This document shows positions 4,047 to 52,159 of a stretch of 64,000 bases of DNA, piece by piece. Numbering within the stretch: position 1 is the first letter of the stretch; every line of letters begins with the position of its first letter. The translations under genes were made by a program, and so were the position numbers. The stretch spans positions 1 to 64,000 of the forward strand of contig QPGO01000027.1 in the NCBI GenBank assembly GCA_008632985.1. Reading direction: 5' to 3'. The stretch comes from Psammoneis japonica. Lineage: Eukaryota. The notes beneath the pieces were generated by a model. That model saw only the letters and a program-made list of their open reading frames with translations. It was not told the origin of the DNA and searched no databases.

Positions 4047-4430
4047 GAGGTGATGCCATTCACTTCTAAATGCAAGTCGCAAAGCGCAAATAGCAGGAAG
4101 CTGAAGCAGGAAAGTGAGAAAGCTTCAAGCTGGGAGCGAAGGTGACATCGTGGTGGCACCAACCTGGCGTAGATCCTACGATGGTGCCCAGTATGTTCAA
4201 TGTTACGTGGTGATTGGGTCGGATTGATCAATTGATGATGTCATTTTGGCGGGAAGTTTGGCAAATTGAAAATCCCAAAATTTAAAATTTCGATTTTTTT
4301 CGAAAATTCGCGGAATCACGTGGGAAACCAACTTCGAAACTTGGAACTTTCAACCTCAAACCTCTCACTTCGAACTTTCGTGCAAGCCTCGATGGTCGTC
4401 ATCGTGGCGCCTTCCCCAATCACTGTATCA

Positions 4431-5633: not shown

Positions 5634-6231
5634 ATGTGGAAAAGCAACAGTGAAACTTGCAAAGCTTGCGAGGCATCAGGCCGGCAAGAGTGGGAAGGAT
5701 ACATGCATGTATAGTTTTGACTTTTTAACCACACTTTGGCGTAATGTGAAGGAGTTTTCATTCCGGTTGTGCTGTGTCTTGCTACAACATGCTGTACGCG
5801 GGAGTTGTTTCTCCTACATTCGTGAATAACTACTGCAGGCTTTACTATATCCTCACCTCCCAGTTGGGAGTGCTATATCCTCAAGTTCTCGCCCTTTCAG
5901 ATGTTTAACGGTTAACACAGCTCGATCGTTCCAAGTTGCCGGCGGATCCTTCTCTAGCTAGAGCTTTGGACCTGTGCTCTCCAAAGAATGTTGCGTAGAA
6001 TCTGTACACTGAAAAAAAGTCAACCTTCAAACGTACTGCGAAAAGACGGAAATTCTTTGGACAGATGGAGGCTATCCAGAAATAAAGCCCCAATATATCC
6101 TTCGAGGCAGAGTAAGAGCTTGCAAGGCATCATGCAAGGAAGAATGGAAAGAAGCATGCACATATTACTTTCTCATGGGAAACAAGCAATGGGGCTCTTT
6201 CTGGCTTACTACAGTATACTCTATGCAAGAG

Positions 6232-7451: not shown

Positions 7452-8047
7452 TCGATTGATCAGTCTTGTTTACGACTTCGATTTGGCAATAGACGTGAGA
7501 CAGCAGAGGTATGTTCGTCGGCGAGTCGTCAGGGAGCAATCGATTGCGAATTGCGGGTAAAAAAAAAAAAAATCAAAAATTGAGAAAAGCGCGGGGAAAC
7601 CGGGAAACATTCTGAACGGGAGGCAATCAGACGCTACAGGGAGTTGCAGGAAAAAACGTCTCCGCATGGTTCCACGCGTTTTTTCCATACAAAAGGCACC
7701 AGCCCGCGCCGCAGATAGCTGGCTAGCTACCGTAGTAGGCTAGTGGAGAGAGTAGGGCCCTACAGGAACCCACTGTATGTACCGGGCGGCCGTACTGTAC
7801 TGTACCTACCAGAGAATGAGAGCAGACGATTACGACGACTGCCAGCATGCCGCACGTACGTCGTACGTGCAACAGCGAAAAGCCAAAGACGTGAGCAGCA
7901 CTGCTGTGCTCGTACTGCCGAGTTCATCACCGAGTCAAACTACAGTCTACTCTACTAGCTAGAGCAGGCCCTGCTGCTGCTGCAGTAGCAGCTGTGCTAA
8001 GACTGTTGTTGAAAGAACATTTTGTTGCACCAATCAGTTGCGAACAA

Positions 8048-9232
8048 TCACAAATGTCCCAATCTGTGCATTGTGTCAAATGCACGTGCATCCTGTCCGC
8101 TGGCGTCCAGCTCCCAATTGCAGCCAATGAGTCCAACACCATCGCCTGTGGCATCAATCAACTTGACTTTTGGATTCTCCATGGCGCAGCATGTTGAATC
8201 TTCCAACTTGAGGTCCACATGAATGATCCTGGACCCATCGCGACCACCCAACAAATGAACCTTGTTGATTTTCCTAGAGACCTGGATTGGCAAGGGCACG
8301 AGGGCTGTGGAAGACAGGACCTCAGAGTCAGACTGCCTCATTGAAGACAGCTCATCTGAAAGAGCTTCAAGGCGCTTGCAGATGTCACGGAGTTCATCAT
8401 CGCCACCATGGTTTCCCCCTTGGGCAGTGGCTTCATCAAGGAGAACTGCGTGAAGAGCGTCCATGTCCATGGAGTGCTGTGGCCACTGGGAAACGCAACT
8501 GAGCATCCACCCATTGCTCACAACAGACAGCTGGATGCCAGAAAGGTCCGTGGTGCAAACACCAGATGGAGCCACAACAACCAACACGACATGATTGGTC
8601 TTGGTGACAGAGTCCTTGCAAGCAGCTTGCAAAACCATGGGCTTGAAGCTTTTCCAAGAACCTCCTTGCCCACCACCACGTGCCTCCATCACAGAAGCAA
8701 CACCAGCTCCATTCACAACAGCAGCTGCATCGTTGTTGTTTGCAGGAGCTGGAGCCGATGCCGTCCGACGAGTGCTGTCAAGGCCACCCGAGAATGGCTC
8801 TTCGTCACCGTCGTCGGTGTCTGTGGCCAGATGAAAAAAAAGAACACCGCACGGCGCGGTCAAATGAAAATGCACGTGTCAGCAACACAGTGACGTCACT
8901 CACATTTGTTTCGCATGCATGTGCGAATGCGGTGAAAATCAAAACTCACCGTCAGGGTTCTCATTGCTGTCGTTCATCGTTCGATGAAGATTGAACCCGG
9001 TTTCGTCTTTGAGCCTGCACAAGCCAGTGCGGAACTTGTCCAGTGGATGGTGCATGAACTCTGCGCGCATCTGCTGGATCTCTTTTGGCGTCGCTCCAGC
9101 GCTTGCCCTGCCATCCATCAGCATCTCCTTCAAGAGTTTGCAGTTGGCAGACCCCTTGTGCCACACTGCTCGAAGGGGGCCGGCGGCCTCAGTGTCAAGA
9201 ACCGATTTGGTTCGTTGGTTGAGTTTGGGCAT
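8048..9232 (-). pseudogene. Two-exon ORF divergent from the transposase, probably the element's accessory gene; Tyr-less and mutated
   Basis: MPKLNQRTK..FMHHPLDKFRTGLCRLK, donor gtgagt near 8949, acceptor cacag near 8821, then ORF 8048-8875. No Tyr codons. Confidence 0.5.
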
Positions 9233-10147
9233 GGTTTCTTTGGTTTTCTCTTTTTTATGAGAGGATTGATGGTGCACAGTCAAGAGTCGTCAAGATCAGC
9301 ATTCGCGTTGACGGGCAGCAATGAGAACCCCATTTTTGAATGGGTCACGACAAACTCACCTCACCACTGTCCGCGTGATGCTCTTTTCAAATTTGAACAA
9401 ATTCCAACCGCCAAAATGAGATTTGAGAAAACACCAACCGCCAACATTGAGAAAGGGCCTCTTGACAACGAAGATTCCCTCAAGACCACACAAAAAACGT
9501 TCCGAGACCACACAAAAATTGTTCCCAAATCACACCCAAAACGATTTTCAGCTCCAGAACGATGACTTTGGACCATCTCAACTGAAGAATGAGTGGCTGA
9601 ATCCCAAGCTTCGGTGTGCATTTGCGACAGCACTGGTGGCAAACTGGCTCCTGATGTTTGTTTTGGCTTTTCATTGGCACATTTCCGTGTGCTTTTCGTC
9701 TGTGAAAAGGCGATTTCATTTTGATTTGTAGAATGAGAATGCTTTTTTAATGCACCACCAACCATGGATCATGGTTTTAAAATTCTGCATCACATGTTGC
9801 GTGCAAACCACTGTGTTAGTTGAGCTAAGAGCACGCGTTGGAATGGTTGTTCTGCCGTGTTCCGGTTGACAAAACGACGCCCAAATTGCCCATTGCGAAC
9901 GTCCCGAAGTCACCATTCGGAAACCACACCCGAATCGCATTTTTTTCGTACGGAATCTCACCAAAGGCCTCTTCCAATGAGAACCCCAACTGCGTGAAGA
10001 TGACAAAACACAATTGTCAAATGTCAAACAACTGCTGTGCTGCTCTCTAGAGCAGCCAGCCACTGCAGAGCAGAGAGCAGCTGCCAGCAGCAGAGACTGG
10101 CACAAACGCCAAAGCAACACACTGTGGTGTGCTGCCAATTGCTGATC

Positions 10148-11070
10148 ATGAGACTGCCCAAAGAGGCCACAGAGTGCTTGGCACAGACGATCATTCAGAA
10201 GCCAAAAGGGTCACCTGCAGTGTGGAAACGTCGGCTTGCATCATGCTTCTGTACCCCAGAAGAAGTGGCATCTGAGTTGTGGGGGCTTCTCGTTGACGAC
10301 GGGAAAATGCCACGAGGTTTTTTGCCCATTCACCTGCTCCACACCCTTTGCTTTCTCAAATTGCACGAATCTGAGACAGTCGTTGCTGGCATCTGTAATG
10401 AAATCCATGAAGACACGCTGAGAAAATGGGTTTGGGTCAGAATTCAACTTGTTAGACAGTTAAATTTGGCACGTGCCATTCCAGATGTTGCTCATGTGTG
10501 TGAAACAAATGGGCTGACACCTTGTTCTTAGATTCGCTGGGAAGACCGCTTCACTGATGATGACGGCAGCAGATGTTTGGCGACACTCGACGGCACTGAT
10601 TTCAGAATCTACGAGCCATCACCATTTGATCCAATGTGGTTCTCCCACAAATTCCACGGTGCTGGGCTGCGGTGTGAAATTGGAGTGTGCATTCAGACAG
10701 GGTGGATTGTTTGGGTCAATGGGCCGCACCCAGCTGGGTTGCCGGATCTGAACATTGCTCGTGAATGGATCATTGAAGAGCTTGAAGATGGCGAGATGCA
10801 TCTGGCCAACGGTGGCTGCAGCGACGGGAGCCAGCACAGCTCGACTCCATCCGGCCCAAGAAATGCAGACGAGGCCATGAAAACAACAGCAAGGGCAAGG
10901 CATGAGGCTGTCAATGGATGGCTCAAGCGTTTGGAGTGCTCAACAAAAGACACCGCCACGCGAAGGAAACACATTGCCATGTGTTTCATGCCGTGGCCAA
11001 CATCACACAGTTGGCCCTCATGATGGGTTGCTCACCATTTGATGTGGATCATTTTGACAACCAAAATTAA
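10148..11070 (+). mobile_element. PIF/Harbinger (IS5/ISL2EU-like) DDE transposase, inactivated
   Basis: Motifs LDGTDFRI, FSHKFHGAGLR(C)EIGV, GP(H)PAG.PDL, (H)LA(N)GG(C) and RARHEAVN. Intron 10469-10531 has a mutated donor (gcacgt). A 1-nt frameshift near 10931 precedes FGVLNKR..HAVANITQL..taa. Confidence 0.85.
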
Positions 11071-11923
11071 CAGCAGAAAGCATGTTGTCGCCAAGATGAT
11101 GTTGCCGCGAACGTTCCTTAATCTCGCTGTCGATGCAACGCCTCGCGAGTCGATCGCGAGCAAAAGCGAACCCCTCCTCCCCACCTGCCACAGGTGGACC
11201 TGCAGCAGGGCCCTGCAGCACTGTCGCAGGGCCCACAGCATGCGCCGGACTGCATCTCCGTGACGCACGGGCGGGTGGCGGCAGCGTGCCCGGGGATGAA
11301 AATGCACCCACCGATGACGCAATTGTGACGTGTGCTTCCCGCACTTTTTTGTGGCCAGCCTTGCGGGGTGCAGACAGACACCGGCAGTGCCTCAGTGCGG
11401 CACGCGCATGCATTTTTTTCTGATGATTCCACGCGCAGATGATGGGGATGCGACAGAGATGCCGATGCCGAGCTTCAAAACCACACTCTTGTCTCACACC
11501 CGTTGAAGCTTGTGGTTGGTTGACTCCATTTCTCTTCAACCAAAAGCACTCACTTTTTCCTCTTGCATGGCAAATTTCAAGATTCTCAGCAACAAAAATC
11601 AAAAGCACAAAACAGCCCTCTGTTCGTTTCCACGACAGACACACCCAGCATGACAACTGGCAGACAAGATGATGATGTTGTTTGCGGGGCAATGCGGCAG
11701 ACAAACAATGCTACAAAAAAAGCTGCCGCGTGTCACATCATCCGTGCCATCAAGCAGCAGTGCAACAATTGTTTTTTCCTGCAACTCCCAGTATGTGGTG
11801 GTAATGTATGACATGGATATAAATATATTTTATGATACTTTTTGCGATTTGCAGAATCCAAAACTCACATCTGTGTTCTCCAAATCTCTGTACCCGTTGT
11901 GCCATCTCAGAGATCAGATAGCA

Positions 11924-12921
11924 ATGAGTAAGTATCTTATCTTTGGTGCCACAGGTCAGCAAGGTGGAGCGACCGTCAAAGCTCTGCTTTCCAAGGGCGT
12001 GAAGGGCGACGATATCTTTGGTGTCACTCGCAATCCCAACTCGAAAAAACTCGCTGATCTGGGAGTAAAGGCAGTCAAGGGTGATTTGACAAACCTTGAA
12101 AGCATCAAGGAAGCCATAACTGCGTCTCAGGCCGACACGGTGTGGTTTATTACCGATTTTGCCACGGCGGGATCCGCCAAGGTCGAAGTCGAACAGGGTA
12201 AAAACGTAATTGATGCCATCAAGCAGAGCGGAGATCAAGTCAAATACGCCGTGTTCAACTCGGTTTGCGACGCTGACAACTGCCCAAAGAGCATTGAACA
12301 TTTCTGGAGCAAGTCAGATGTCGAAAAGTACATGGCCAAAGAGTTTGAAGGCACGGGTAAGAAATGGGCAGTGCTCCGCCCAGTCGCATTTCTGGATAAT
12401 ATGGATAACGCCGCCATGCGTAACCCTCTTAAAAAGGGCCAAGTGTCCGCCTTGATGAAGGCCGAAACATCTCTCAAGCAGGTTGCTACCGTCGACATTG
12501 GAAAGGCGTCGGCGGTCATGCTGCAAGATCCTGATACATATTCTGGTAAAATCATCAACGCGGCCGGCTGTGAGCATACCGGTACAGAATTGGCTGAGAT
12601 TTTGACCAAGGTCTCGGGCACTCCATGCAAGTATAAAATGGTGCCTCGTTGGTTGCTCTGGCTCTTCATGAGGGACATGTACCACAGTAAGTTTTTTCTT
12701 CGCTTTCGCTGTTTACCCTGGAATCTTGCAGGTTGGCGTCACTGATATTCCATCTTGTTTCTCATTTTTAATGTTCAGTGGCCAAGTGGTTTGATGCGGA
12801 GGGATACTCTGCTGACGTTGCAGAATTCAAAAAGATTGTCCCTGATGCCATGGATGCGTCTGACTGGTTCAAGGCCAAGGGACAGTGGAGTGACGGAGAA
12901 AAGTTTGCGTCTTCGGAATAA
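11924..12921 (+). CDS. NmrA-like NAD(P)-binding Rossmann protein
   Basis: YLIFGATGQQGG, VTRNP, HFWSK and LRPVAFLDN. Intron 12687-12778. Stop taa at 12919-12921. Confidence 0.92.
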
Positions 12922-13545
12922 GGGTTGAAAATGTGAGAGTGTATCGTGTAGCATGTGTGTCTTTGTCGTTTCACATCTTTTATCTGGTACCAGCAGTTAC
13001 CGAGATAAAGTAGCCAATGTAAGATTACAACCAGACTTGTAAGCTTTCTTCCTTGTAATCAACTTTCTGTTCTTTCATAGTTACGAAAGCAGAAAACGCA
13101 GTGGAGGCCAATCATCGGTAGCGGCCAACTCAATGCCGTTTGCATGCACCTTCTAGCTTCTGCGCATCATTCTATTTTCTAAATTATGTGTTGCGACACT
13201 CTTACTAGCTCTACCTGGTGTTGTGACTATTTGGTCTAGGGTTACTGCTAAAAATTGAATTTTCGAGTTCTTGCCGAGTTGTCGAGAATAAAACGGTTGC
13301 TTGTATCTCGCAGATCTTTTTTGTTCGCCCGATTGGAATTCAGAATGGGCTTGATAACACGTTTGCAAAGTCGCATTAGCTTTTTCTTCGCACATTCTCG
13401 TGCAAGAACAGGACCCAAGCTATTTTTCTCTAACAAAAGAAAAGTGATTGATGCTATTTTGCTTTCCTCGCATTAGTGTTGTGGATAATTGAATTAGCGA
13501 CAAACAGACGAATGACGATGATTCCGTAGCCCACCCCTGTATCAT

Positions 13546-14604
13546 CTATCCATGGCTCAACCTAGCAGGCGCACGAGCTTCTTTCACTCTTCGTTCATAC
13601 TCATCGAGGTCGTCGTCTGTTGGAATTCGCAAGTCCGTGGCAGCAACCGTCTTTTTACAACGTGGATAACCCTTCCACACGACTTTCAACCGACCTCTCG
13701 GCGAGATCTTTCCCGTCTTAATTTGTACAATGTACGTGGTTCCCTTGTCATCAAACTTCCACAACGAGTTGCGCTCGAAAACTCCAGGCGTTGTTGCTCG
13801 ATGTTCTCGATGCAACAAACGGCGTTGCTGGGGGCGGCGTGCGCTTTGAAGGAGGACGTGCCGAATGACAGGTCGGCGGGACGCAGATGCTTCGCACCAC
13901 GCTCGACCGTGTGCCGATGGGTCGAAGCGAAATTTTGACTTGTGATTGCGAGTAGAGGCACGAGAGGCACGAGATCCTTTGGGATTAACCACTTGAGCGG
14001 TCAAAGCAGGAGGCGTGGGGCCCGACTCCATAATTGGTTGGTCATTCGACATTACTGTATTGTCGACATCTTCTTCGCTTTCGTTTGTGTGAACTTCTTT
14101 ATGTTCATCATCATCAGATTCTGAACGATGACTTTTAGCCGTGGAATGGTTGTCGGGCGAAAGGGGTACCAGCTGCTGGTCTTCAGCTTGCAACTTACTA
14201 CGTTTGGCTTCGTCTTCAGGTTGCACCTGAATACGGGACGTTTTCATACTCCTCCACAAATTCATAAACTTCACATGGTCGAGCAGTCCATTCAGTAAGC
14301 CTTTCAAAGACACGGTGCAGATTTGGTCATCCGTCATTACCTCTACAACCACAGCAGGTTCAACACCCCAGAAAACAAGGAACACGTCCGCCTCGTTCAA
14401 CTTGGGAAACGGTAACTCCTTGACTCGTGCGTACTCGCACCATCCCAAGAAATAGTCCATCCAAGACAATTCTCCTTTCTGAACACACTTGAGGAGAACA
14501 CGCTGAACGGTTGCAGCGGCTTTGTCGACCAATAGCCGTTCCTTGGGGAAATCAACGAAACAATCTCGAATGATACGATCGAGCAAAGAAAGCGACGTTG
14601 CCAT
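13546..14604 (-). CDS. Hypothetical protein, paralog of 4431-5633
   Basis: Same N-terminal block (LDRIIRDCF..WMDYFLGWCEYAR) and C-terminal block (RFDPS.HGRAW..VVWKGYPRC). Confidence 0.75.
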   Translation of the reverse strand: MATSLSLLDRIIRDCFVDFPKERLLVDKAAATVQRVLLKCVQKGELSWMDYFLGWCEYARVKELPFPKLNEADVFLVFWGVEPAVVVEVMTDDQICTVSLKGLLNGLLDHVKFMNLWRSMKTSRIQVQPEDEAKRSKLQAEDQQLVPLSPDNHSTAKSHRSESDDDEHKEVHTNESEEDVDNTVMSNDQPIMESGPTPPALTAQVVNPKGSRASRASTRNHKSKFRFDPSAHGRAWCEASASRRPVIRHVLLQSARRPQQRRLLHREHRATTPGVFERNSLWKFDDKGTTYIVQIKTGKISPRGRLKVVWKGYPRCKKTVAATDLRIPTDDDLDEYERRVKEARAPARLSHG

Positions 14605-15216
14605 CGTCTGACAAGGTATAGAGAGTATTCTCTTGCAAGGTTGTTGTTCTAAAGCTATGAAGGAAACACCGGGAAAATATTTGAGCATTATCATACAGAT
14701 TATGACAGATAGAAACAAAAGACTCTATGAAGGTCCGTTTGTGTTGTGTGTGAGTGCAATGTCGGCAGCACAGGTTTTGCGTTTGTTTGGTTCCACATGA
14801 TGTGAAAGAAAGACACAATAGAAACGTTCATGACCAAGTCGGAGAACTTTCCAACCATGTGCTCTCTAGAGAGCATAAAGTACTATTCGTATATGTTCTC
14901 AACACAATCAACGAGGAAAGGAGAAGAAGGAAGAGTTCCTGCCACAACCCAACAGCCGTTGCTGGTTGTGGCCTTTGAGTAGGTCGCGCTTTGTTGTGCG
15001 CATGCACGCGGTGCTGCGTTGTCGGTTTCAATCCTTCAATCCCGTTCACGATTGAACTCGAGAGACTGTGTGTGTGGCAGGCAGATAGCAGCATACTGTG
15101 AAAAATTCAGGCGACTGTGCTCTAAACTCTCTCTACCGACGTCGTACGTACGGTTCATTTATTCGACCGACCATGATAGCCGCCGCCGCTCCTGCCGTAA
15201 CCACAACAACCACATC

Positions 15217-19047: not shown

Positions 19048-21377
19048 GTTGCGAGAACCACCTACGATATGCACTGACTCACTCAATCCTCAAGTCTCAA
19101 ACGCCATTGTGACGTACTGCGATTTGCGTTGCGATGGATTGTACCGTAAGAATAAGTCGCAAGCCATCCGATTGGTCCGATGACCGATCCGTGCGTGCGC
19201 GTGCTGTTCAAACAGAGTTGACAGGTGGCAGGGTGGGTAGGTGGGTGCCTGTACGAGCTTAGCTCCGCTCCCGCATCTTCGTCATCGACTAAATCGGCTG
19301 GGGCGGGTGATGATGGGGCAAAAACTTCGAAGATGAAAGATGGATTAAAGATGACAGCACCGGCCCAATTGGTGACCTCAGAACATTGGGGCCACGAGCA
19401 AAGAGTGACTGCACCCTGCGTGCTGAAACAGATGAGAGGAGATTCAGACATGTGTTGAGAGTGTGGGTCTGGAGCAGCATCTGGGGCATGTCATGCTGCC
19501 ACAAAAGATGCCTTTTCAATGCACAAAGTGCCTTTTTGGTGTCTTTGGCACACCACACTGAGCCAGAAAAGGAGGGGGCGTGAGTGAGCATCCCTGTGCA
19601 AGAAGGCACCTCCACAAGAAAAGTTGAGCTCACGAGTGACAGCTTTCTGAGCAAAGCAAGACGTTGGAAATGATGTTTTTCCCAGTTTGTCACAGCTCTG
19701 ATGGAAACCTGGATGAAAGTGGAGACAAAGGGCCTCTCAACATGGGCTGCAGCTGCCCTGCATCCATGTCTGACACACCGGTGAAGACTGGGTGCATGAG
19801 AACCAAGACAAGTCAACAAGAAGGGCCTTGAGGAGAGACGACGGTCATTCCAACATGCAAGTGTGAGAGGGGTGGGTTGCCAGTGAGCACAGCTGAGGGA
19901 AAGATGGTCAGATCCCAAGCAACCTTGTGGCCAGCAGAGGTGACTCACCTGGCAAGTGTCCTGCACATGACATCTCTGGTGTGCTGTGCCAGAGGAGCTC
20001 ACTCAGTTGAATTGACAGAGGCTGCAATGCCAAACCACATTCTTCTCACAATGAGAGTGTCATCAGCTGCACCCAACACCTGGCACTTTGCCTCCATGCA
20101 GCCCTGCAAACCACAATGCCAGAAATGCTGGTCCCCCCAAAAGGCCAGATTTGCAAAGAAGAAAATTTGATGGAGGACCAAGTTGCTGCTTGCCAGCAGA
20201 ACATCTCTGACTGCTGAACTCTTCTGTCTGAGGTCGTGTTGTGATCTGCCACAGTGGACATCACAGGCTGGCATGCTGGAAAATGTGTGCACAAAGCTCT
20301 GTGCACACACGGGCTTCAACCGTGGCAAAACATCACTTTGAAACAGTCACTCAGACATGTGCATTTATCTGTGCTGTGCTCAAGTTGTTTCTCAAACAAG
20401 GCAGTCATGAGAGCAGTCACACTGCACAAGTTGTTGTTGCCCATTTGGCACAAAACTGTGCTTCACAAAAAGGGAAGAATGTTTGTGGGTGCTCATCATT
20501 TTTCCCAATGCAGCCCTTTGGTGTGTTGCAAAAATTGCATCTCTTTGCAGAAAGGTGCTTGTGTTGATCCCATGCACACACTCCACAAGGACATTTCACA
20601 CCATCTTCCAACACATTTGCTGCACATGATGATCCGAGACACCAGCACACACTGCTGCCTGTGCACTGCTGTCCTTCTCATGACCACAAATCTCATGACC
20701 ACAACCCCCACTTGTGTCTTTTTTCTGTGAGCAAGCATTGCAGCTCCCACACTTTCAACAATGCTGCATGGTGAAGGATCTGTTTGTTGGCATGACCACA
20801 TTCTGGACTTTTTTCACAGCCACAACAACAGGCCAAGCTTCTCAATGAGAGGAGCCTCCAGTGGACAGCCATGCTCTTGGAGAGAGTTGTTGTCACATGT
20901 GGCAGCAGCAGCACAGATGTGGAAGACAAGCAAACAGTGGATGATGAGACAAGGCCAACCCAAGCACATCCTTTGCTGTTCTTGGTGAGTGCCTGGTGAT
21001 GACATGGGAGCCAAGCAGCCATGACCAACCAGAAATGGCACCCCATGACAAAGAAAATCCTCCTGTGTCAGGCTTTGCCAGGCCAAGCAATCTTGTGGCT
21101 GACACATCACTGGCTTTCTTTTTCAGTGGGAGCTTTTGCCTGATCAACATGTGGGGTGGGATCTGGAGAGCCTCTGCACCCCCCCACCACCACCATTTCA
21201 GTGCTTTGGATCTTTTGTCCACTGCACACATTTTCACATGATGTGTGTTGCGTGCCCTGTTGTGAATTTTTTGGCAAGCATGGCACATCATGTTTGTCTG
21301 GTGCTTTCATCTCACAGCATCTTGGGACATTGTGGACAATTTGCTCACAATTTTGTGCTTCTTTTGGCCTCAATCCT

Positions 21378-21756
21378 TGCACTATGCTCGAAGAACGAGT
21401 GTAAACGAAAGTAGAACGAAGTTCAAAAAAGTGAAAATTGTGAGAATTGTTTCTGCGCAATCATTTTGGGTTTCTCCGAACGGGTTCTCAATAGCCTAAA
21501 CCTTTTGTACTGCTCCTACAGACAAAGGCCTTTCGGAGAATATGATCGTGACAACAGATTGTCCGGATACGATTGATATTGACACATAAGATGTCAACAT
21601 CATCGTACGATCGCATTTGCGATTCTCGACATCCGATCACTTCTGTGTGACTGATCTGTACTTCGTACGAACCCACGATTGACGTACGATTGAAATATAC
21701 TTTTATTTAATATATTCATATACATATATAATACGTACATAACAACGCATATTGCA
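21378..21756 (-). repeat. 3' LTR (largely unmutated)
   Basis: Colinear with 26175-26553; 30 TpA. Confidence 0.95.
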
Positions 21757-21782
21757 TTCGCCTCCCTAATTGCACATTAGAG

Positions 21783-24700
21783 TCAGTCGTTAAACGGCAT
21801 TATCCGACGAATATTGACAGTGTCAATAACGTCACCGCGTTTGATCTGTACTGTGCCATTAGCATGTACCGTTGTTATTACGTACGGTCCAACATAGGGC
21901 TGTTCTAATTTTTGCGAGTCTTTCTCGAGTAGTATCTTTTCTCCTACTCTGTACGTGTAAGGAGTACGTCGAGCATTCTCTCGAGCGTTATTTTTATTTA
22001 TGATTTCTTGTTTTCGCTGCTGGATTAATTTCCAGTCTGCGACATGTTGGACGTTAAATATCATGTCTCTATTGAAGACTAGTTGTCCTGGTGTAGCTTG
22101 CGTAGTGGTATGATACGTAGAACGTACCGCAAATGCTACCGCTGATAGCATTCCAGCGAAAGGATCCTCAGCATCTAGAGGTGCATGTTGCAAATCAAAT
22201 GTACGGAGCATGTTCCCCAGCACTTGATGTACGCGTTCAATAATTGCGTTTGCTTGTGGATTTCGTGTAGTTATAGGCTTGACTTTAATGCCACAATCAT
22301 CTTGCACCATTTCTCTAAATTGGTGTCCGATGAACTCACTTCCACGGTCACATGTGGTTGACGATGGCCAAGGACATCTGCTTGACCATGTTCGTTCTAG
22401 CAGTCCAGCTGCAGTTGTGGGCTCCTCATTTGGGATTTCCACAACTTCAAACCATCCGGTTGCTGGATCGATCATTGTCAAACATTTCAGGACTGGGGGT
22501 TCTTTCTTTCCCTTGCGACGCATTTTGCATGGCCCAATGAGGTCCACACACAGTCGTTCCCATGGTGCGGATTCTGCGCACTTGGGAGGTAAATGTCCAC
22601 ATTTCTTGTGTTTCTTTTTGAATTTTTGGCACGTCTCACATCTCGACACGTATTTTCGTATGTCTTCACGCAAGGTGGACCACCACAGGTGTTGTGAGAT
22701 TGTTTCTTCTGTTCGATTTGTGCCAGGGTGAAGAAGGTGCGCATGGCACCAATCCATCACTGCCTTTTGCAACGTCCTCGGGACGACAATTTTGTCCTTG
22801 TGACATGTGAGCAACCGGTCTCGCTCGCCTCCATGAAAAGTCTTCGCACGAAACGTCTCATTTGACAATTGGGAGAGAATGTCTTTGTCCCGTTTTTGTT
22901 CACAATCAAGAACTTTGCAATTTAACGGAAAGACATTGTCGCAGGATTTTGGTGGGACCTTTTCAGCCAGCTCTTCTGTGCTGAGGGTTTCCACAGGTTC
23001 CATTTTCTTCACAACAAGTCGGCCAATCGCATCTGCGACAATGTTTGCCTTGCCCTCAAGGCATGTCATTTTGGGACTGCACTCTTCTGTTGTTAGATGC
23101 CAACGCATGACTCTGTCCGTTGTGAAATTTTTGTGTGTGAGATTTTTGTGATCCGTGTGTGTGTTTGTCTGTTGGCCAAACAGCACATTGCGGAACTCTT
23201 TTGACGTCTCCACCATGGACAACAGCTCTTTTTCCGTTGCAGTGTGACGCGTCTGCGCTCCATTCAGCTTGCGGCTGTAGAAGGCAATTGGTCGGTTTTT
23301 CTGAGTGACAACCGCCCCCAATTGAGAATCACTGGCATCGGCACATGTCTCAAAGGGTGCATTTGAAATTCGGGTGTGACAATGGCACATCTTTGGAGAT
23401 GATGCGCTTCACATTTTCGAAGGCTTTTTGTTCTGTTTCGGTCCATTGCCACTTCACTTGGGTAGAAGTGAGTTTGGCCAAAGGAGCTAAAACATGAGAT
23501 CGTCGAGGCCACATGTCTCGACAGCAGTTGATCACACCGATGAAGCGCCGCAATTCCTTGCGAGTTTTAGGAGTTGCGATCGCATGAATCGCTTCCACTT
23601 TTTTTGGAATCAGGCTGATGCCCTTGCGGGTGACATGAAAGCCCAGGTGGTCTGCTTCAGGTTTAGCGAAAAAGGACTTCTCGGCGTTGACCTTCAATCC
23701 GGCTTGTTCTAGGCGCAAGAACACCATTTCAAGCTTCTTGAGGTGGTCTTGAAAATCACCTGTTGCAAGACACAATGTGTCGTCAACATGAGTTCTGACG
23801 AACTCCAGACCTGCCATGAGCTCACTCATGTGCTCTTGGAAAACATCTGGAGCTCCACAGATTCCCATCGGGAGTCTACAGCACTCACATTTGCCGTGAG
23901 GCATGACGATCGTGCACAAGCAACGTGCGTGCAGCGTCAATTCGATGTGACAGTGTCCCATGTTTAAATCTGGGGACGTTGCATGCATGAAGCCTTCGAG
24001 CTTCTGTGGCATGTCCTGAACATTGGGCAGAGGAAACGGAGCATGAATTGGCCTCTCATTTGGCTCACGAAAGTCGGATGAGAACCGAACTCTGCCATTT
24101 TTCTTGGGTTGAACAAAGGTTGGAGCCGCCCATTCAGAACAGTTTGTTTTTCTAAGACTTTCAACTTGCACAGTCTTTCAACCTCCTTGCGAGCAGTCGC
24201 CTCCAAGGCTTGTGGTGCGGGAAATGGTTTGGCATGATGCGGACTCACGCCCGATTTCAACTTCAAATCCACCGGTTTCCCGGTCCATTTGCCTGGAGAA
24301 CCATCGAAAAGGTTTTCAAATCTTTTTAAGAGGAAGTTCAGCTGCTTCTGCTCTTCAGGAGTTAGATGAGCAGCTGCTGCAGTCACATCATTGAGGTTTG
24401 CAGCGTGACAGTCTGAGTCAAGGATCCGATTGACCCTGTCATTGAGACCAATCACTGCGTGAGATTCCTCAATGTGATCGGCAATCAACTTAAAAACATC
24501 GGCATCGAAGAGTGTGTCAACATTCTTCACAGGAGCAGCTGCGTCTTCCCATTTAATCTCTTCATTCGAGAAGTCCAATGTCATCCCAAGACTTGACATT
24601 AAGTCGCGTCCCATGATCACATCATGACGACTCGAAGAAGAAGGGGAGTCATCAACACACGCTGTTGTTTTGATCATCTCATGTTTGTCAAATTCGGGCA

Positions 24701-24887
24701 AGGAGAATTGGATCTTACATCGACCATCAGTCGTAAAGAGCCCTCCTTTGGTTTCCCAGAGTTTGGTGGCGGGTGCTTTGGTTCTGAGTTTCTGCGTGAA
24801 TTTGCGCAAAATTGTGGCTGACGATGTTCCGCCATCGAGGAGAACGCGCAGAGGCTTGTTTTTTGCTTTGCCCAATGAAGTGTTCAT
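21783..24887 (-). pseudogene. pol: Gypsy pol (protease, RT, RNase H, integrase) with two 1-nt frameshifts and many Tyr->Cys/His changes
   Basis: LLDGG (protease), SEWAAP, RLPMG, HVDD, DASD, FYSRKL, HPG..CETCQ, VDLIGP, DRGSEF, PQANAIIERVH and GPY. Frameshifts near 24153 and 23367. Confidence 0.93.
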
Positions 24888-24983
24888 GTGGGCGACAACT
24901 GCTGGACTGGTGTGAATTACTTTGGCCCTTTTTCTGGGCTTCCTGATGTCCAGCAGAGCGCAAGACTCCTCTTGCGGTGCAAG

Positions 24984-26138
24984 TCATTCCTCAGAATCAC
25001 TGCTCGTCATTTTTTCAAACTGACAATTCTCCTCGTCAAGGGCATCAGAATCACAATCTTTGCTCTTGTGCTTTTCATCATTGTTCGAGGAACTCGCTTT
25101 GAGCATTTTTTGAACTGCTTGGATCGCCGTGGCATTCAACTCTTCTTTGCGAGCGGCGTTGTCGTTATCGCGACGAGACCATGTGCGATTGCCATTTGAA
25201 CGGTGCCGTTTCGGGTCGGGTTCATGGTTCCCACGGCGTTCTTTCGCAAGTCTTTTGATCGACCAGCACTTGTCCATGTTGTGAGTGGATTTCTCGCATG
25301 AAATGCACCACTTCTCGGACTGAGATTTTTCGGCACCATGTTGGTGACCATTTTTGGAACCACGTTGGGAACCACTCTTGGCTTTTGATGCAGCACCGCC
25401 ACTGCCATCAGCCTTGGCATGAATGCCATCGAACATGTCTTCTGCGACCTCCAGGCGCTCCAAGAACTCAACCAACTCGTCACAGGTGTGTCTCAAAATT
25501 TCGAAACCCTGGACGGTCGACTGACGCTGCCACTTTCGAGGTGCAAGATTGAAGAGGATGTCCTTGAGCTCGTCATCCTCGATCTTCTGTTCCTTCCCAA
25601 AGGGAGGATAGAACTTGAGGTCTTCGTTGACTTCCTGGACCCAAGCAGCAATTTCGCGCACTTTCATGGACTCCGGCTTCTTGAGATCACGACGCAAATA
25701 ACGTTTCTGCACCGAAAGTGCGTTCTTGGGAAACACATGCCTCGTGAGATGTTGCAGGCATTTCTCGAAGCTTCCTTCCGCAGATTCGTCTTCAAGGTTC
25801 GCTGCCGCATTCTCGAAAGCACGTAGAGCGTCTCCTTGGAGCAACATGCGCATGAGACGAAACTTGTCAGATTGCTTCCTGACATTCTGGCCCACTGGAA
25901 GTTGATCGTAGCTCTTGAGAAATTCGATGAACTTGGGGACACCTTGTTTCTTGTGGCACTCGACATTGATGGTGTGGGTGCGGCTGTCCTTCTTCTCGGG
26001 ATGAAAACGTTGCTCCATCTTGAGGTGCTGGCTCGGTTTGAGGCTCTTTGGCTCGGAGTTCGATTCCAGCGGTTGAGGAACGATTTTCTCCTGCCTTGAC
26101 GAAGTTTTGGCATTGGTTGCATGAGGTGAAAGCTTCAT
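24984..26138 (-). CDS. gag: Gypsy gag with a CCHC zinc knuckle
   Basis: ORF upstream of pol containing C-x2-C-x4-H-x4-C (CISCEKSTHNMDKC). Confidence 0.85.
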   Translation of the reverse strand: MKLSPHATNAKTSSRQEKIVPQPLESNSEPKSLKPSQHLKMEQRFHPEKKDSRTHTINVECHKKQGVPKFIEFLKSYDQLPVGQNVRKQSDKFRLMRMLLQGDALRAFENAAANLEDESAEGSFEKCLQHLTRHVFPKNALSVQKRYLRRDLKKPESMKVREIAAWVQEVNEDLKFYPPFGKEQKIEDDELKDILFNLAPRKWQRQSTVQGFEILRHTCDELVEFLERLEVAEDMFDGIHAKADGSGGAASKAKSGSQRGSKNGHQHGAEKSQSEKWCISCEKSTHNMDKCWSIKRLAKERRGNHEPDPKRHRSNGNRTWSRRDNDNAARKEELNATAIQAVQKMLKASSSNNDEKHKSKDCDSDALDEENCQFEKMTSSDSEE

Positions 26139-26174
26139 CTTGAACTTGTTGCCTTCTGTGGTGTGTGTGCACAA

Positions 26175-26553
26175 TGCACCATGCTCGAAGAACGAGTGCA
26201 AACGAAAGTGGAGCGAAGTTCAAAAAAGTGAAAATTGTGAGAATCATTTCTGCGCAATCATTTTGGGTTTCTCCGAACGGGTTCTCAACAGCCTAAACCT
26301 TTTGTGCTGCTCCTACAGACAAAGGCCTTTCGGAGAACATGATCGTGACAACAGATTGTCCGGATGTGATTGACATTGACACATGAGATGTCAACATCAT
26401 CGTACGATCGCATTTGCGATTCTCGACATCCGATCACTTCTGTGTGACTGATCTGCACTTCGTACGAACCCACGATTGACGTGCGATTGAAATGTGCTTT
26501 TATTTGACACATGGACATGCACACACAATGCGCACATGACAACGCACATTGCA
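26175..26553 (-). repeat. 5' LTR (TpA-hypermutated)
   Basis: Colinear with 21378-21756; only 5 TpA remain. Confidence 0.95.
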
Positions 26554-28955
26554 TCCTTGATGTTGATTTTATTTTCATGAGCACAAACAATCCTTCCATC
26601 TCAACAACTCTGCCATGCACAAACATGATGCACCCTCCGTCATGATTGCACAGCCACTTCTAAAAAATGTGACCTCCTTGCAACCAACCAACCAGATTTT
26701 TTAACCACAACTTTGTCTCAAATCACTCAGCAATCACCGTTGCTTTTTCCTCCATTTTTGCATTCTGTTGGAGAATTTTTGCTCCTGCTCCAACCACTGA
26801 GAGAAGTCTTGCAAACACTCTTTTGTCAGAGTGATGTTTGTGTGTGACCAAGTCTTGTGCACAAAACCTGCAAAGTTGAGCTTTGTGCTCCACTTTGCTG
26901 TTTTGCATGTTGGCCAGACTTTCTGCCATCCTCTGTGGCCACCAATGGGATGAGGGGAGCTCGCAGATGGCATTGTTGTCATTGTTGCAGAGAAGATCAT
27001 CTTGAGATGTTCTTGACTGGAACGAGTCATGTGGTTGCCAGGGCTGGCCGCTGAAGGCACAAACACCTGCATGTGTGTGTTTGGGGGGGGGGGGGGGGTT
27101 GTTGCCGGTGGCATCAACTGGCTGGGCTTCAGCTGCAGACAAGCAGATGAAAGCTGCAAAATGACAAGGCTCTTGGTTGACTTTTTCAGACATCAGAGGC
27201 TGGTTGCACCTCTGGCTTTGGCGCACATCGTGCCATGATCTGGGTCGCAGTGGCTGGTCCTTGGGCCATCTTGGGCTGGGCTTGATGATGCTGGCTCTGG
27301 TGTTGAGGCACTTTTGGATGAAACTGCAGACTGCATTGTGTGGCATGGAAATTGCCAGCACTTGAAGGTTGCTGGGCTGCTGGAGGGAGTTCTTGCCAGC
27401 AGCAGCTTTGCATTTGGTTGACTCTCTGACAGAAGCAATGGGTGGGTTTGCCGCAACAAAAGTGATGCAGCCACGAGTGCACAAAATGTGCTCCTTTTGG
27501 GATGAAAGTTTTTGACAGGGAATCCGCAAGAGACACCACTTGTCTACAAACAAAGAGGTCTTGGTTGGCAGAGGGTGGGTGGCAGCAGCAGTTGACAGCC
27601 AAACTCAGACAATGAGCCCAAGCATGTCACTCGAAAAGCAGAGCAGCACAAAAAGGAAGTGATCACCCAGGTTGTGAGAGCTGATCTCCTGTGCTGCTGA
27701 AGGTTTTGAGAGCTGATCTCCTGTGCTGCTCAAGTGAAAAAGTGGCGAGGAAAGAGAAGAGGCCCTGGTGGCTGGAGATCAGAGTGCCAGCAGCTGACGG
27801 TTTTCTGAGGCTGACCATTGCTGACATCAGCTTGGACGAGCTCTGCCTGTGCAGTGAGTTTCTCCTTGCAGAACGTCCAAGAAATTCCCAAACAGCATGT
27901 TCACACTCAACTCCTCAACCCTCATCCATGCAGTCTTTTTCACACTCAACTCCTCATCCCTCATCCATGCAGTCTTTGTGTCGTCAAATCATGTCTTCGT
28001 TGAAATGCACTTATTTGAACGAGAAGTGTGCATGTTCTGCAGTCACAAAGACATCCAACACCCTGATTCAACATTTGACACGCGTGTTGCGCGGGACGCT
28101 GCGCTCTGTCGCACGTGCTGCTGCCCTTCTCAGGACCACAAAAATCGTCTTCGTCGTCATCGTCGTCATCAACATCGTCCCTTTCATCATTGGAAGCTGC
28201 TGAAACCACATTACAAACAACTGTCCTTGATCGGTGCGATCTGCAAGCTGCAGCATCTCCACAGGAAACTGTGGAAAATCCAGCAGAGGACGTGACAACC
28301 AACAAAACACAGAGGAGTCGTAACCCACGACACTTTCTTGGAGTGAATCGCCCATTCCACCTGTGCTCTTTGTGCATGTTTCGTCTGTGTTTGTTGCATA
28401 AAAACCGCAGCATCCGACGCATGCGCCATTGTCAAACCGTCGGCCATCGGGCCATCGGCCAGCAGCAATCTTGCCTGACGACGTGCGCACGGCACGTTGC
28501 TGATTTACCACAGTGTCGCACAGCCAGCATCACAAGCACACACACAGCGAAAGCCCTCTGCCAATTGGCAGAACGCCTCGTATGTAGAAAATGTGCTGAC
28601 ACCTGCACGATCGCTTTTTTTTCTGTCGCTTTGCTTGTGCACACGAAATCTCAACAAACATTTGCAATTCTGACAAGATTCAAGGTGAAAATCGATGCTT
28701 CTTTGCATTTTCCAAGGAGCCATCATCTCACTTTTTCGAGTTTTCGGTTCAAACAAAACGCAAAACGTTCACAAAGAAGCAACAAAAAAGCAACAATTTG
28801 CTTGACGATTTGGGGTGTTCGCACCCCAAGCAAAACAACATTTTCCTTGAGTGTCACCAAAAAATTCCTCTGACGAGTCTCTTCCTTGTGCACACGATTT
28901 CACAATGGGAACACGTCGGATGAATGCGCACAGATACGATGTGGAGAGCTGAACG

Positions 28956-37599: not shown

Positions 37600-38120
37600 T
37601 TTTTACCACTTCTGATCCTGGGAAGGTCTCTTCCAGGATTTCTTTGAATGCCGGCATGTCCTCTGAACCAACTTTGGGATGACAGCATTGTTGTTGCAAG
37701 CCCCAACAACAAGAGCACTCTTCTCTGCTTCAGCAAGCTCATTGCCTCTGAGAGCACCTTTAACTTCAAGTGCACTGCTGCTCCTGCAGTTGCCAACAGT
37801 GTTTTCAGGGCACGGAGGCCGAAGCAACAGCGAAGCTGGTCCCACATTTTGGCGCTGCACTTCAAGAAAAAAGGTCCACAACACTGCCCGTGAGCCCCTC
37901 AGCTGTTGCAACACCTTGACTGCAGCATTGCCTGGGAAATGAGCTTCCCATGTGGGATGACCATTGCAAACAACCAGAAAAGAATCTTCAACTCATCAGG
38001 AAAATTGCTTCGCCCCTCACATCCAGGGTTCATGGCAACGAAGATGCCAACATTTTCATGAAGTTTGATCGATCTGTCAAGAAGTTCAACCTCTTCTTTT
38101 TGTTCAACCAGGCAATGCTG
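37600..38120 (-). pseudogene. Dynein heavy chain AAA1-AAA2 fragment, hypermutated and frameshifted
   Basis: VGIFVAMNPG(C)EGRSNFPDELKILF..AMVIP..LISQAML, (CC)FGLRALKTLL..AG and VIPKLV..DMPAFKEILEETFP match the dynein consensus [21 protein letters not shown] / HYDFGLRALKSVL / VPKLVAED..DVFPG. Confidence 0.85.
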
Positions 38121-41100
38121 AAAATGGTGAGGGGACATGCGGGCTCCAAAAGATGATTGGAATCTGTTGCACACTGTGTTGACAAGTGAAGCCGGTTTGG
38201 AAGAGGAGCAACGTGCCGAAGACACCGCTGCTCGAAAGAACAATGTGGACGGTGTTGCCTCAGCTGATGCCAGTGTGAAACAGACAGCTGGGATGACTGT
38301 GACACAAATGAGTGGTGGCAGCAAACTCCAACACCATGAAATTTCAATGTCTGGAAAAGCACATCGACACCCGCTCTTTCAAAAGAGACAACGGCGGTGA
38401 AATGCACGGCCGGTCATCGGGAAGCATCTGGCATTGGCGGGCGGCCATTTGCAAAGAGCAGGAGCCTTGAGTTCTTCACGTGACTTCAAAGACAGTGCCT
38501 CAAATGCAAACCCATCACAACTGTCCGTGCCTCACCTGGGGTGAGTCTTGAGATGTCCGCAATGGCGTCTTCTGGTTTGATGTTGCGTTTGTCACATGAA
38601 GGCCAAATGAACTCATGCAACTCTTCCACTTTCCAATGCAAGCCATTCCATTGAGGGGTTTCTTCAAAATGTCTGGGCCCAATGCACCCCACATTGTCCA
38701 CATTGAAGGGGGGGGGGGGTTGCATTTGGCACCACCGTTCAACCCCACTTCCCTGTGGCATGAACTGGGGCAGCACTCAATTTGTCAAGTTTGGTTTCCC
38801 CATCTTGGTCATCTTTTGGCGCAGTGTCACTGAGTGCTTCACAAAGTGTTGTCAACGTGCACTGCTCCAATGTTGCACAACTCAGGCAGTCCTTGGCAAA
38901 GTCCCTGGGGAAATTTTGCATGTTTGTGGCATTGACCATGAGAGATCATTTGGGTGCCAAGTTGTGCTTTCTGTGGATTAAAAAGTGAGCTGCAGAAGTC
39001 TTTCCTTGGTCTGTTGGAGCACAAATGACCCAGACTCTCCCTCTGCCATGACCGGCACCTGAGGACAAGGCGAAAGCTCACAACATTGCTTGGGTCACTG
39101 GAGACATCATCACATTTGTGCCTTCAATTCCTGCCACTCTAGCAGACTTTACAACACTTTGTTCACGGTTGAGGTTTTCCTGACACAAATTGAGAGAAAA
39201 GTCCTTGAAGCAATTTGCGCCTTCATCGATCACACTTCCGGCCACCAAAGTCAAGCTCTCAACAACAGAGCAGGATGCCCAAATTGCAAACTTCTGCGCT
39301 GGTGTGATTGCACCACCCCTTCCCCCCTCATCTCTTGTTTCTTCATTTCTGCTCACAGCATTGTGAGCGCGCATGTGTGTGTGGCAAGAGAGGTTGCTTC
39401 CAGAGATCAATTGATCAGTCTGCTGATTCTTTGGGTCAAAACTGACTTGATCATCATTGCTGTGCTCTGCAGTTTGATTGATCGCATTTGCTGTTTGCCA
39501 AACAAATGTCATGCACAAATGACAGAGCAGGTGGCACTTTCTTCTCACTCAGACATGCCAAGAACAAGCCCTTCGGGGGGGGGGGGGGGGCACTGACCAC
39601 GGCAAGACTGCATTTGTGGCTCAGAGTGTGCATGCTGGCAGGCTCAAGCTCAAGAAATGGGCTGGCATGGCGTCTCAATGGACAAATGATTGATGTGCAT
39701 GTCTCAGGAATCTGCTTCTTGTTGCTCCTCTTTTCTTTGTGCCACTTGTTCACATTTTGATGCCGGGACATTGAACAGCTCAAATCCCGCATGATTTCAT
39801 GATTGCTGGTCACACATGACAGTCATGAGCATGCACATGTGCCCAGGCCTGCAATGGCATGGTTTCATTGTCTCCAACATGGCCCTTTTTCACTGCTTGT
39901 CATCACCCCTTTCCTCTTTACAGCACTTCTTCATGTTGCACGTGCCTGCATGTTCAACAGTGTTCAAATCCCACACAATTTGATGCACGCCAGTCACACA
40001 TCTTTGCATTGTGCATGCCCGCATGTTCAACAGTTCAAATCTCACACAATTTGACACATGCCGGTCACACATGTGTGACAGTCTCAACACAAATCTCATC
40101 TGCGTGCAACTTTTAGGACAATCATTCCATTCTCGCATGAAAACTCACCACATGTTGCACATGCAAGATCTGCAAACTCCTGTTGCAACCCGGATGCTCC
40201 ATGAAAACTGTCAGTTCCCAACAACTCCTGTGTGAGTCGACGCAAGCTCATCACATGTTGCGCACGTCAACTGCGAACTCCTGTTGCAACCCGGATGCTC
40301 CACAGCAAACTCATGCACTCCTGCGACCAAACTTGAGTGTCACACACTCACTCACTCACTCACTCACTCACAAACAAAACTTTGATGTCGCTTGCCGGGG
40401 GTGGACAGTGAAAGGCATTTTGACAATGTGCGCGAACATGCTTTTTCTTCTGTTTGTTTGTCATGTGTCATTCCAACCAACCAAGCTTGCTTCAACATGT
40501 CAAACAGAGCAAGGGCGGGCTTGCCGGACAAAACATTGTGCCCCAGCTTGCTGAGCAATGCTTTGAGGTTGGGGACGATGACGACGACCCAGCTTGGAAA
40601 TTCTCTCTGTCAAACTTCCAGCATGACATGGTTGGACTTGCTGCAATGAACAACAAGCTCAAGAGGTGCTCTGCATGGTGCGCCATTGTCTGGGGCTTCA
40701 AATGTCCATGGCTGGACTTTTGCAGCCACTGGCACACCCGCCAACTGCGCTGCAATTTGCAATGTTTTTCTGTGCCTGGGTCAGCTGGGTCTGACTGTTG
40801 GAACACATGCTTGGCATCCCACTGATGACATTGTGCCATGACACTTGTCCATGCCTGTGACAGTTTGGGCTGGCCATTGGAGCACATGCTTTTGGCACAC
40901 TGATGTCTGGGGCATCAACTGTCTGCAGTGAAATTTTGCAGCTGCTGTCACCCGCTTGTGACATTGCAACACTCGCCCATGCCCGGGATGCCACATTTCT
41001 GACCTTTGTGCATCTCATTGCAAAAGATTGCCTGGCTTGGGTGAAAAAGAACAAGGGGCAGAGCAACACTGTGCTCTTGTTGAAGTTGTTTGTCCCTCTG

Positions 41101-52033: not shown

Positions 52034-52068
<35 letters not shown>

Positions 52069-52159
52069 AGGTGCCACTGCCACTGCAAATGAAGTCTGCA
52101 GTTTTCAAAACCAGCTTGCCCTGCAAACCAACACAATGCGTGCGATGCGTGCCCAACCC

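Follow-up and report, generated by a model that had tools for sequence, protein, structure and literature searches.

Repeat-induced point mutation (RIP), known from Neurospora and other ascomycetes, changes C to T, mainly by turning CpA into TpA. The C>T direction is also given in published accounts (PMC7296669; bioRxiv 10.64898/2026.01.13.699255). ADAR and APOBEC enzymes inactivate mobile genomes by context-dependent transitions of the deaminase type. A hypermutation restricted to the TpA dinucleotide has been described once, for integrated giant-virus and virophage DNA in mutation-accumulation lines of the chlorarachniophyte Bigelowiella natans (Mettrop et al., bioRxiv 10.64898/2026.01.13.699255). 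In that preprint A>G and T>C, always at TpA, make up 230 of the 231 mutations recorded in two regions; the rate, measured de novo, was raised about 1000-fold, the process was active only in some lines, and an ADAT2 homologue has been proposed as the agent. The DNA analysed here is a 64,000-nucleotide stretch of the diatom Psammoneis japonica (contig QPGO01000027.1, positions 1 to 64,000, hereafter the window), which carries on its minus strand, at 21378-26553, a Ty3/Gypsy-type retrotransposon with long terminal repeats (LTRs). Over the 5' four-fifths of this element nearly all TpA (TA) sites have been changed to TpG or CpA. This is a new occurrence, in a diatom and on a retrotransposon, of a kind of process described once before, and its mechanism we infer from the pattern of the changes.

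Three features of TpA-type hypermutation are found at this locus: (i) the changes are nearly only A>G and T>C; (ii) they are restricted to TpA and fall on both strands; (iii) they are regional, on mobile DNA, with the genes spared. The B. natans preprint likewise describes almost exclusive A>G/T>C change at TpA, giving TpG or CpA according to the strand, in foreign DNA only, and reverse transcriptase (RT) and DDE domains are enriched among the TpA-poor coding sequences there too. The two cases differ in the host, a chlorarachniophyte there and a stramenopile here, and in degree. TpA in the B. natans insert derived from a nucleocytoplasmic large DNA virus is reported as only 1.8-fold lowered, whereas the diatom retrotransposon is near saturation, with 25 of 30 LTR sites changed. 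The diatom element, unlike the B. natans case, also contains a sharp tract edge within a single element and, unlike the main text of the preprint, offers a preference for T-A-pyrimidine (TAY) and a read-out of Tyr to Cys/His replacement without stops. The words 'flanking', 'context', 'trinucleotide', 'stop codon' and 'tyrosine' are absent from that main text; the figures and supplements may show flanks. A full-text search over part of the literature found the B. natans preprint and no diatom TpA hypermutation. RIP resembles the present case as a host process that places dinucleotide-context transitions in repeated or mobile DNA and spares neighbouring genes, but it has the opposite chemistry and direction and creates TA and stop codons. 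ADAR differs in acting on RNA, which would leave the LTRs alike and affect one strand, and APOBEC in making C>T/G>A changes in strand-coordinated runs, whereas the diatom changes are A:T>G:C, arose after insertion, and lie on both strands without runs.

The sequence at 21378-26553 is a complete Ty3/Gypsy-type LTR retrotransposon. It possesses two direct LTRs of 379 nt each, which align without gaps and end in TG...CA, a 4-bp target-site duplication (AGGA) on both sides, and the order gag, protease (PR), RT, RNase H and integrase (IN), recognised with a profile made from 24 full-length database relatives. Pfam matches were obtained for RVT_1, RT_RNaseH, Integrase_H2C2 and rve; the Pfam search gave no match for gag or protease. 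In the translation the acidic residues can still be read, as can HHCC and D,D,E. The catalytic motifs D-S/T-G and YxDD are not intact and read DGG and HVDD, so that the element, as judged from its translation, is Ty3/Gypsy by descent but a damaged copy. A six-frame search of the window with the pol profile found no pol copy besides this one. The parts of the element, with their open reading frames (ORFs), and its immediate surroundings are as follows.

19500..21377, no strand: older flank with one TA site and little CpG (CpG observed/expected 0.00-0.20 through the 21000 bin)
21374..21377, minus strand: AGGA target-site duplication, 3' side; the flank past the 3' LTR starts AGGATTGA
21378..21756, minus strand: 3' LTR, 379 nt, not hypermutated, 30 TA (LTR alignment)
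21378..22289, no strand: 3' part of the element, unmutated; 75 TA counted over 21378-22320, TA observed/expected 0.9-1.2 (TA counts)
21783..23363, minus strand: RNase H and integrase (IN ORF 21783-23408; DLIGPC 22527-22544); RT_RNaseH 2e-21, Integrase_H2C2 6e-18, rve 7e-9, profile positions 799-1322
22290..26553, no strand: TA-erased tract in the element, 33 TA in 22321-26553 (TA counts)
23362..23365, minus strand: frameshift 2, boundary of the RT frame and the RNase H-IN frame (profile search)
23362..24171, minus strand: reverse transcriptase (RT ORF 23350-24177; HVDD 23779-23790); RVT_1 7e-12, profile positions 531-799
24147..24171, minus strand: frameshift 1, boundary of the PR frame and the RT frame (profile search)
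24147..24983, minus strand: protease part of pol (PR ORF 23964-24983; LLDGG at about 24828-24842); profile positions 285-538, E 4e-51
24986-24984, minus strand: in-frame TGA at the end of the gag ORF (ORF reading)
24984..26219, minus strand: gag ORF (411 aa) containing a zinc knuckle of the form CX2CX4HX4C; matches profile positions 9-296 (E 7e-24)
26175..26553, minus strand: 5' LTR, 379 nt, TG...CA, hypermutated, 5 TA remaining (LTR alignment)
26554..26557, minus strand: AGGA target-site duplication, 5' side; the flank ahead of the 5' LTR ends ...CAAGGA
26554..28000, no strand: older flank, nearly devoid of TA and poor in CpG (dinucleotide counts)

The direction of the change can be read from the LTR pair, which shows 31 differences over 379 nt and no indels. 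Of the 30 TA sites in the 3' LTR, 14 are TG and 11 are CA in the 5' LTR and five are unchanged, and the reverse direction was found at none. Differences thus affect 25 of 60 TA positions against 6 of 319 non-TA positions (Fisher 2.5e-17), which corresponds to change at 83% of TA sites and 1.9% of other positions; two of the six differences outside TA form a TG-versus-CA pair that looks like two independent hits on one TA. Since the LTRs were identical at insertion and now differ at TA in one direction, the process acted on integrated DNA and on both strands. CpG was hardly affected (24 and 23 CpG in the two LTRs), and the loss of one CpG against 25 TA sites indicates a process far faster than CpG decay. 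Overall, TG and CA products are balanced (37:40). Strand coordination was looked for in runs of TG or CA choice and was not found, the runs being not fewer than expected by chance (observed versus expected: 17 and 13.4, 15 and 18.1, 10 and 10.3). Such an interspersed strand choice is a poor fit to single-strand tract events.

The related sequences used for comparison comprise the 24 full-length database proteins of the profile, a wider set of 118 database proteins, and 78 related DNA loci with 47-58% protein identity, obtained by scanning metagenome contigs with a search pattern derived from a four-sequence alignment. In the loci TA is not depleted: its observed/expected ratio is 0.61-1.10 in 77 of the 78, against 0.00-0.22 in the tract (250-nt bins). 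Together with the LTR pair (25:0) and the TAT/TAC codons of the relatives given below, this ratio supports TA as the ancestral state and TG/CA as the derived one, as a preliminary sequence-only reading of the region had proposed from the residues of pol. The six motifs on which that reading was built, namely LLDGG, DLNMGHCHIEL, GKCECCRLPMG, HVDD, VINCCRDMW and DLIGPC, were all located in minus-strand ORFs, and DLNMGHCHIEL, GKCECCRLPMG, HVDD and VINCCRDMW all lie in the RT ORF 23350-24177.

The conserved Tyr residues of these motifs are encoded almost always by TAT or TAC in the relatives (55 to 76 of 64 to 77 relatives for each motif). For the Tyr of YxDD, the relatives have TAC 45, TAT 19 and TGT 1, and the element CAT. 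In GYYHI, the first Tyr is TAT 34, TAC 29 and TTT 1 against CAC in the element, and the second TAC 35, TAT 28 and CAC 1 against TGT. In GKYEY, the corresponding counts are TAT 42, TAC 18 and other 5 against TGT, and TAC 46 and TAT 19 against TGC; in NYYR, TAC 33, TAT 22 and other 11 against TGC, and TAT 36 and TAC 30 against TGT. The Tyr of GPY is TAT 51, TAC 25 and CAC 1, and TGC in the element. When a column of the 24-relative profile is counted as conserved Tyr from a Tyr share of 60% upwards, there are thirteen such columns, and the element there has Cys 7, His 4, Phe 1 and Tyr 1, while the other conserved columns of the same profile are mostly kept (197 kept, 35 changed; Fisher p = 7.9e-9). 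When the 78 DNA loci are used, 32 columns have Tyr in at least 70% of them and 28 of these columns fall in the mutated tract, where the element has Cys 13, His 10, Phe 3, Trp 1 and Tyr 1. No Tyr is found among the 270 residues of RT or the 279 of PR, in contrast to 2.8-4.6% Tyr in the relatives. Cys or His at these positions is not a habit of the close relatives: the 78 loci keep Tyr in 847 of 901 cells and have Cys/His in 8, and the 118 database proteins, over the same 13 columns (896 cells), have Tyr 659, Phe/Trp 100, Cys 10, His 47 and other 80, that is, 57 cells with Cys or His.

The protease motif is a weaker case. The reading of DGG as a former DSG, changed by one TA step, is plausible from the codons, since AGC can become GGC and the element has GAT GGC. 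It needs, however, a codon type seen in only 8 of 64 relatives, in which the Ser/Thr codon is TCT 26, TCA 10, ACT 10, AGT 8, ACC 4, TCC 3, ACA 2 and ACG 1 (TCN 39/64, ACN 17/64, AGT 8/64).

The specificity of the change was evaluated over all 47 conserved columns that are changed in the element, and TA>TG/CA fully accounts for 20 of them and CG>TG/CA for 2, while 25 fit neither change. In a ranking of 48 strand-symmetric context rules, TA>TG came first (20/47), followed by AT>GT (10), a rule that overlaps with TA>TG through TAT codons; the median rule explained 1 column, and C>T context rules explained at most 4 of 47. The same pipeline applied to the 78 DNA relatives as a control attributed 50 of 1,980 changed columns to the TA rule, compared with 20 of 49 departures from conserved residues in the element; no single locus exceeded 16%, whereas the element reached 41%. 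The back-mutation comparison suggested by the sequence-only reading was thus run as an equivalent test at the codon level, with the 48 control rules and the 78 DNA relatives, and the TA rule came out best.

A change of TA to TG or CA cannot make a stop from a sense codon, as had been supposed; enumeration gave 0 of 976 codon-by-context cases. Existing stops are altered under this rule, TAG becoming TGG or CAG and TAA becoming TGA or CAA. From the TA density of the unmutated part, about 286 events were estimated in about 3.9 kb of coding DNA, and the four ORF pieces hold no in-frame stop. In simulations with an equal number of events, random transitions produced a mean of 6.9 stops (range 0-16) and RIP-like changes 28.4 (range 16-41). 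The further statements that no new stop codons arose and that the frames stay open are correct only within the four pieces. Gag and pol, continuous in the 24 relatives, are split in the element by the TGA at 24986-24984, and the pol frame is broken by 1-nt shifts near 24154 and near 23362-23365, lesions that lie beyond the TA rule; the gag-pol linker does not align to the relatives. Stop density over six frames is about 27 per 1000 positions in erased DNA as against about 34-37, a fall that stays modest because TGA becomes commoner while TAA and TAG vanish. Taken from its translation, pol is likely crippled, with HVDD for YxDD, DGG for D-S/T-G and about 23 Tyr lost, and still has long ORFs. 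The element may accordingly have been killed by missense change, as the sequence-only reading supposed.

The mutated region had been delimited as 22280..24887. This span is too narrow, as the tract runs from about 22290 to the end of the 5' LTR at 26553. The other edge lies between about 22286 and about 22376 and is sharp: TA content drops from 8% to 0.8% within less than 100 nt. The unmutated 3' 0.9 kb is sandwiched between erased DNA on both sides; the 21250 bin of the adjoining flank, with a CpG observed/expected ratio of 0.73, overlaps the 3' LTR. The 3' part could have been spared either because the tract ended there or through later gene conversion from an intact copy.

Erased DNA is not limited to the element and its flanks. 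Along the window, TA observed/expected switches between 0.02-0.07 in erased blocks and 0.43-0.74 in gene-rich ones. The end state of the process is seen in a pair of repeats in the window that are unrelated to the element: the copy at 49946-50751 has 39 TA sites, every one of which is altered in its partner at 52177-52956 (TG 15, CA 20, GA 3, GG 1), and 41 CpG sites are TG or CA in the latter. A third copy of this family shows 20 of 20 TA sites changed (49826-50050 versus 42550-42799), so that the family is composed of one nearly unmutated copy and two erased copies. The blocks 8001-12000, 38001-48000, 52001-56000 and 60001-64000 have TA observed/expected of 0.02-0.20, CpG observed/expected of 0.08-0.72 and TG/CA of 1.5-2.1; the gene-rich blocks between them have TA of 0.43-0.74 and CpG of about 1. 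Long ORFs inside these further erased blocks had no Pfam match. The erased 8-12 kb block is bracketed by two pairs of inverted repeats, of 270 and 186 nt and 71-72% complementary, located in 4457-5571 and 13554-14590; they overlap the ORFs 4239-5633 (plus strand) and 13546-14724 (minus strand), and these ORFs may be a diverged inverted gene pair. A neighbouring ABC1 kinase gene at 2481-4124 (minus strand) has named best relatives that are all diatoms (Skeletonema, Cyclotella, Thalassiosira, Fistulifera, Seminavis and others; 45-61% identity), which marks the host as a diatom; an atlas search with it returned mixed taxa (Streptophyta, Bacillariophyta, Haptophyta) and did not settle the host.

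The TA sites that survive in erased DNA have distinctive flanks. Sixty-four of 118 are of the form YTAR (pyrimidine-TA-purine). The same form makes up 115 of 815 TA sites in gene-rich blocks and 20 of 131 in unmutated repeat copies, and it accounts for 23% of the CA/TG sites of the same DNA, which served as the control for newly made TA (Fisher 1e-20). Since YTAR predominates among the survivors, the process prefers TAY as its target, in frame the codon for tyrosine; on the same sequence grounds, TAA and TAG appear as the poorer targets. Two of the five surviving TA sites of the 5' LTR, at 26403 and 26463, lie in the palindrome CGTACG; GTAC is otherwise well erased, and the numbers are small.

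The reality of the sequence was examined in public sequencing runs. Run X1, filed under the same organism code, contains 52% of the sampled words, whereas runs X2 and X3 contain next to none. X1 contigs cover the erased flanks at an even word depth of about 58, with 0 differences in 26524-27098 and 4 in 27083-28343, and a contig over 18177-21405 has 5 other letters and 1 gap. As X1 is possibly the assembly's own sample and its library is unrecorded, this gives only partial support against an artefact. Over the element, 4,282 contigs were found and the summed word depth, which is not a copy number, is 6,093-13,867, compared with 48-62 over the unique flanks, which makes the element family look multi-copy. 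Variant places among the copies comprise C>T 91, G>A 86, A>G 60 and T>C 62, against 33 transversions. Contigs of other copies show 1-nt indel differences at 23362 and 23365, and one contig has an extra base behind 24154, precisely where the two frameshifts of this copy lie; contigs with the differing indel form make up a minority of the summed depth (304/2,862, 121/619 and 217/763). At 27978 and 28013, in single-copy erased flank, X1 and the window disagree, with TA in X1 against TG in the window at one position and the reverse at the other, which looks like standing variation at TA sites; two CG/CA differences occur near these positions.

The observations are most probably explained by a full-length Ty3/Gypsy element that inserted into older repeat DNA and then underwent, in the chromosome, conversion of TpA to TpG or CpA over its 5' four-fifths. 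The changes are A:T>G:C transitions placed about equally on either strand, with an A flanked as T-A-pyrimidine preferred; TAT and TAC are then the best in-frame targets and become Cys or His codons. We infer a host enzyme directed at transposon chromatin as the agent, and the process would serve genome defence. The leading candidate for the agent is a DNA adenine deaminase of the TadA/ADAT2 kind, an assignment that is tentative and somewhat short of an even chance.

Several observations weigh against this explanation in whole or in part. Adenine deamination and thymine oxidation are indistinguishable from sequence alone. The two frameshifts and the in-frame TGA indicate that missense change is not the sole damage. 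The untouched 3' 0.9 kb includes one of two initially identical LTRs and is a misfit to a model in which all repeats are hit; the escape of that LTR also argues against simple homology triggering as in RIP. When polarised events alone were used, the flank preference went in the same direction but was not significant: among 37 polarised sites with one TAY and one TAR strand the change was on TAY in 24 and on TAR in 13 (p = 0.099), and a four-class test of the 3' neighbour of the changed A gave p = 0.13. Finally, the agreement with X1 is not fully independent, given that it may be the sample of the assembly.

Of the other explanations, thymine oxidation at TpA fares best, although it is rather improbable. 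A dioxygenase of the TET/JBP type would produce 5-hydroxymethyluracil or 5-formyluracil, whose mispairing with G has the same sequence outcome. 5-formyluracil is mutagenic, and thymine modification exists in other protists. Read from the opposite strand, A>G at T-A-Y becomes T>C at R-T-A, and all counts therefore fit this explanation equally; the older islands are also CpG-depleted, which suits chromatin with base modifications. In the young tract, however, CpG and TA loss are uncoupled (1 CpG against 25 TA in the LTR), and the ADAT2 homologue is the only candidate named in the preprint (bioRxiv 10.64898/2026.01.13.699255).

It is very unlikely that the element is in reality intact and that a TpA base modification in silent DNA was miscalled as TG or CA by a long-read basecaller. 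Open frames are expected of an intact element, and the unrecorded library of X1, maybe the source sample, leaves room for such an artefact. Against it, X1 reproduces the TA-free flanks at even depth, the same assembly shows 75 TA in the neighbouring 0.9 kb of the element, and relatives with the same signature (the Tyr-free P0015 and P0092 and the TA-poor L025) occur in other public data. The B. natans changes were called from Illumina data (bioRxiv 10.64898/2026.01.13.699255).

Editing of transcripts from A to I by an ADAR-like enzyme before their reverse transcription, which would make new copies hypermutated from the start, has slighter prospects still. The family looks multi-copy and changes in the internal region could be inherited, but the LTRs, identical at insertion, differ at 25 TA sites, all in one direction; sense-strand T>C is as common as A>G (11 versus 14 in the LTR, 40 versus 37 overall), and the same erasure is found in the non-element flanks and in the unrelated repeat pair. 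ADAR favours a 3' G, whereas the 3' neighbour preferred here is a pyrimidine. In favour of such editing, a preference for 5' U/T, as at TpA, is typical of ADAR according to the Discussion of the preprint (bioRxiv 10.64898/2026.01.13.699255). GC-biased gene conversion of repeats, or a general mutational or selective pressure on them against TA, has next to no probability: TA is low everywhere, at 0.43-0.74 even in gene-rich blocks, and a family that looks multi-copy offers conversion partners, but A/T outside TpA is nearly unchanged (6 of 319 LTR positions), conserved catalytic Tyr residues were destroyed, which selection would not favour, and TA content falls tenfold across the tract edge in under 100 nt.

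Three known processes were considered as such and rejected: RIP, as the direction is reversed (CA/TG>TA at 0 of 30 LTR sites) and C>T rules account for at most 4 of 47 columns; ADAR-type RNA hyperediting, as the LTRs differ and both strands are hit; and APOBEC-type kataegis, as the changes are A:T>G:C without strand-coordinated runs.

The signature appears, on sequence comparison, elsewhere in public data. P0015 (Logan) is a Tyr-free relative with Cys/His in 6 of 6 Tyr columns, P0092 (JGI) is a Tyr-free relative with Cys/His in 3 of 4, and the metagenome contig L025 (1518 nt) has a TA observed/expected ratio of 0.19 and a CpG ratio of 0.04. In P0015, P0092, P0103 and P0095 Tyr makes up 0-1.3% of residues and Cys/His is raised. 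A wider proposal, which at present is doubtful, would be that diatoms carry a dedicated TadA/ADAT2-like DNA adenine deaminase, specific for T-A-pyrimidine and recruited in sharply bounded tracts to transposon chromatin, and that Rhizaria and stramenopiles share the same ancient defence. The tyrosine codon would be its optimal target and stops would never be made, so that the enzymes of mobile elements would be disabled and long frames left; across algal genomes such frames might give rise to spurious or new genes, and LTR dating might be distorted.

The practical consequences reach beyond this element. Dating by LTR divergence is inflated, with 31 differences where only 6 lie outside TA sites. 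Domain searches are weakened, RVT_1 scoring only 7e-12 and the protease lacking a Pfam match; gene callers still see long frames in erased DNA, where stop density is only modestly lower, and Tyr-free, Cys/His-rich ORFs enter public protein sets, as with P0015 and P0092. The LTR pair places the action of the process on integrated DNA, and TAY provides a concrete motif for enzyme assays. A process for which one preprint of 2026, on a chlorarachniophyte, had been the only source now extends to diatoms, which are major ocean producers, and near-saturated TpA hypermutation is now seen on a retrotransposon.

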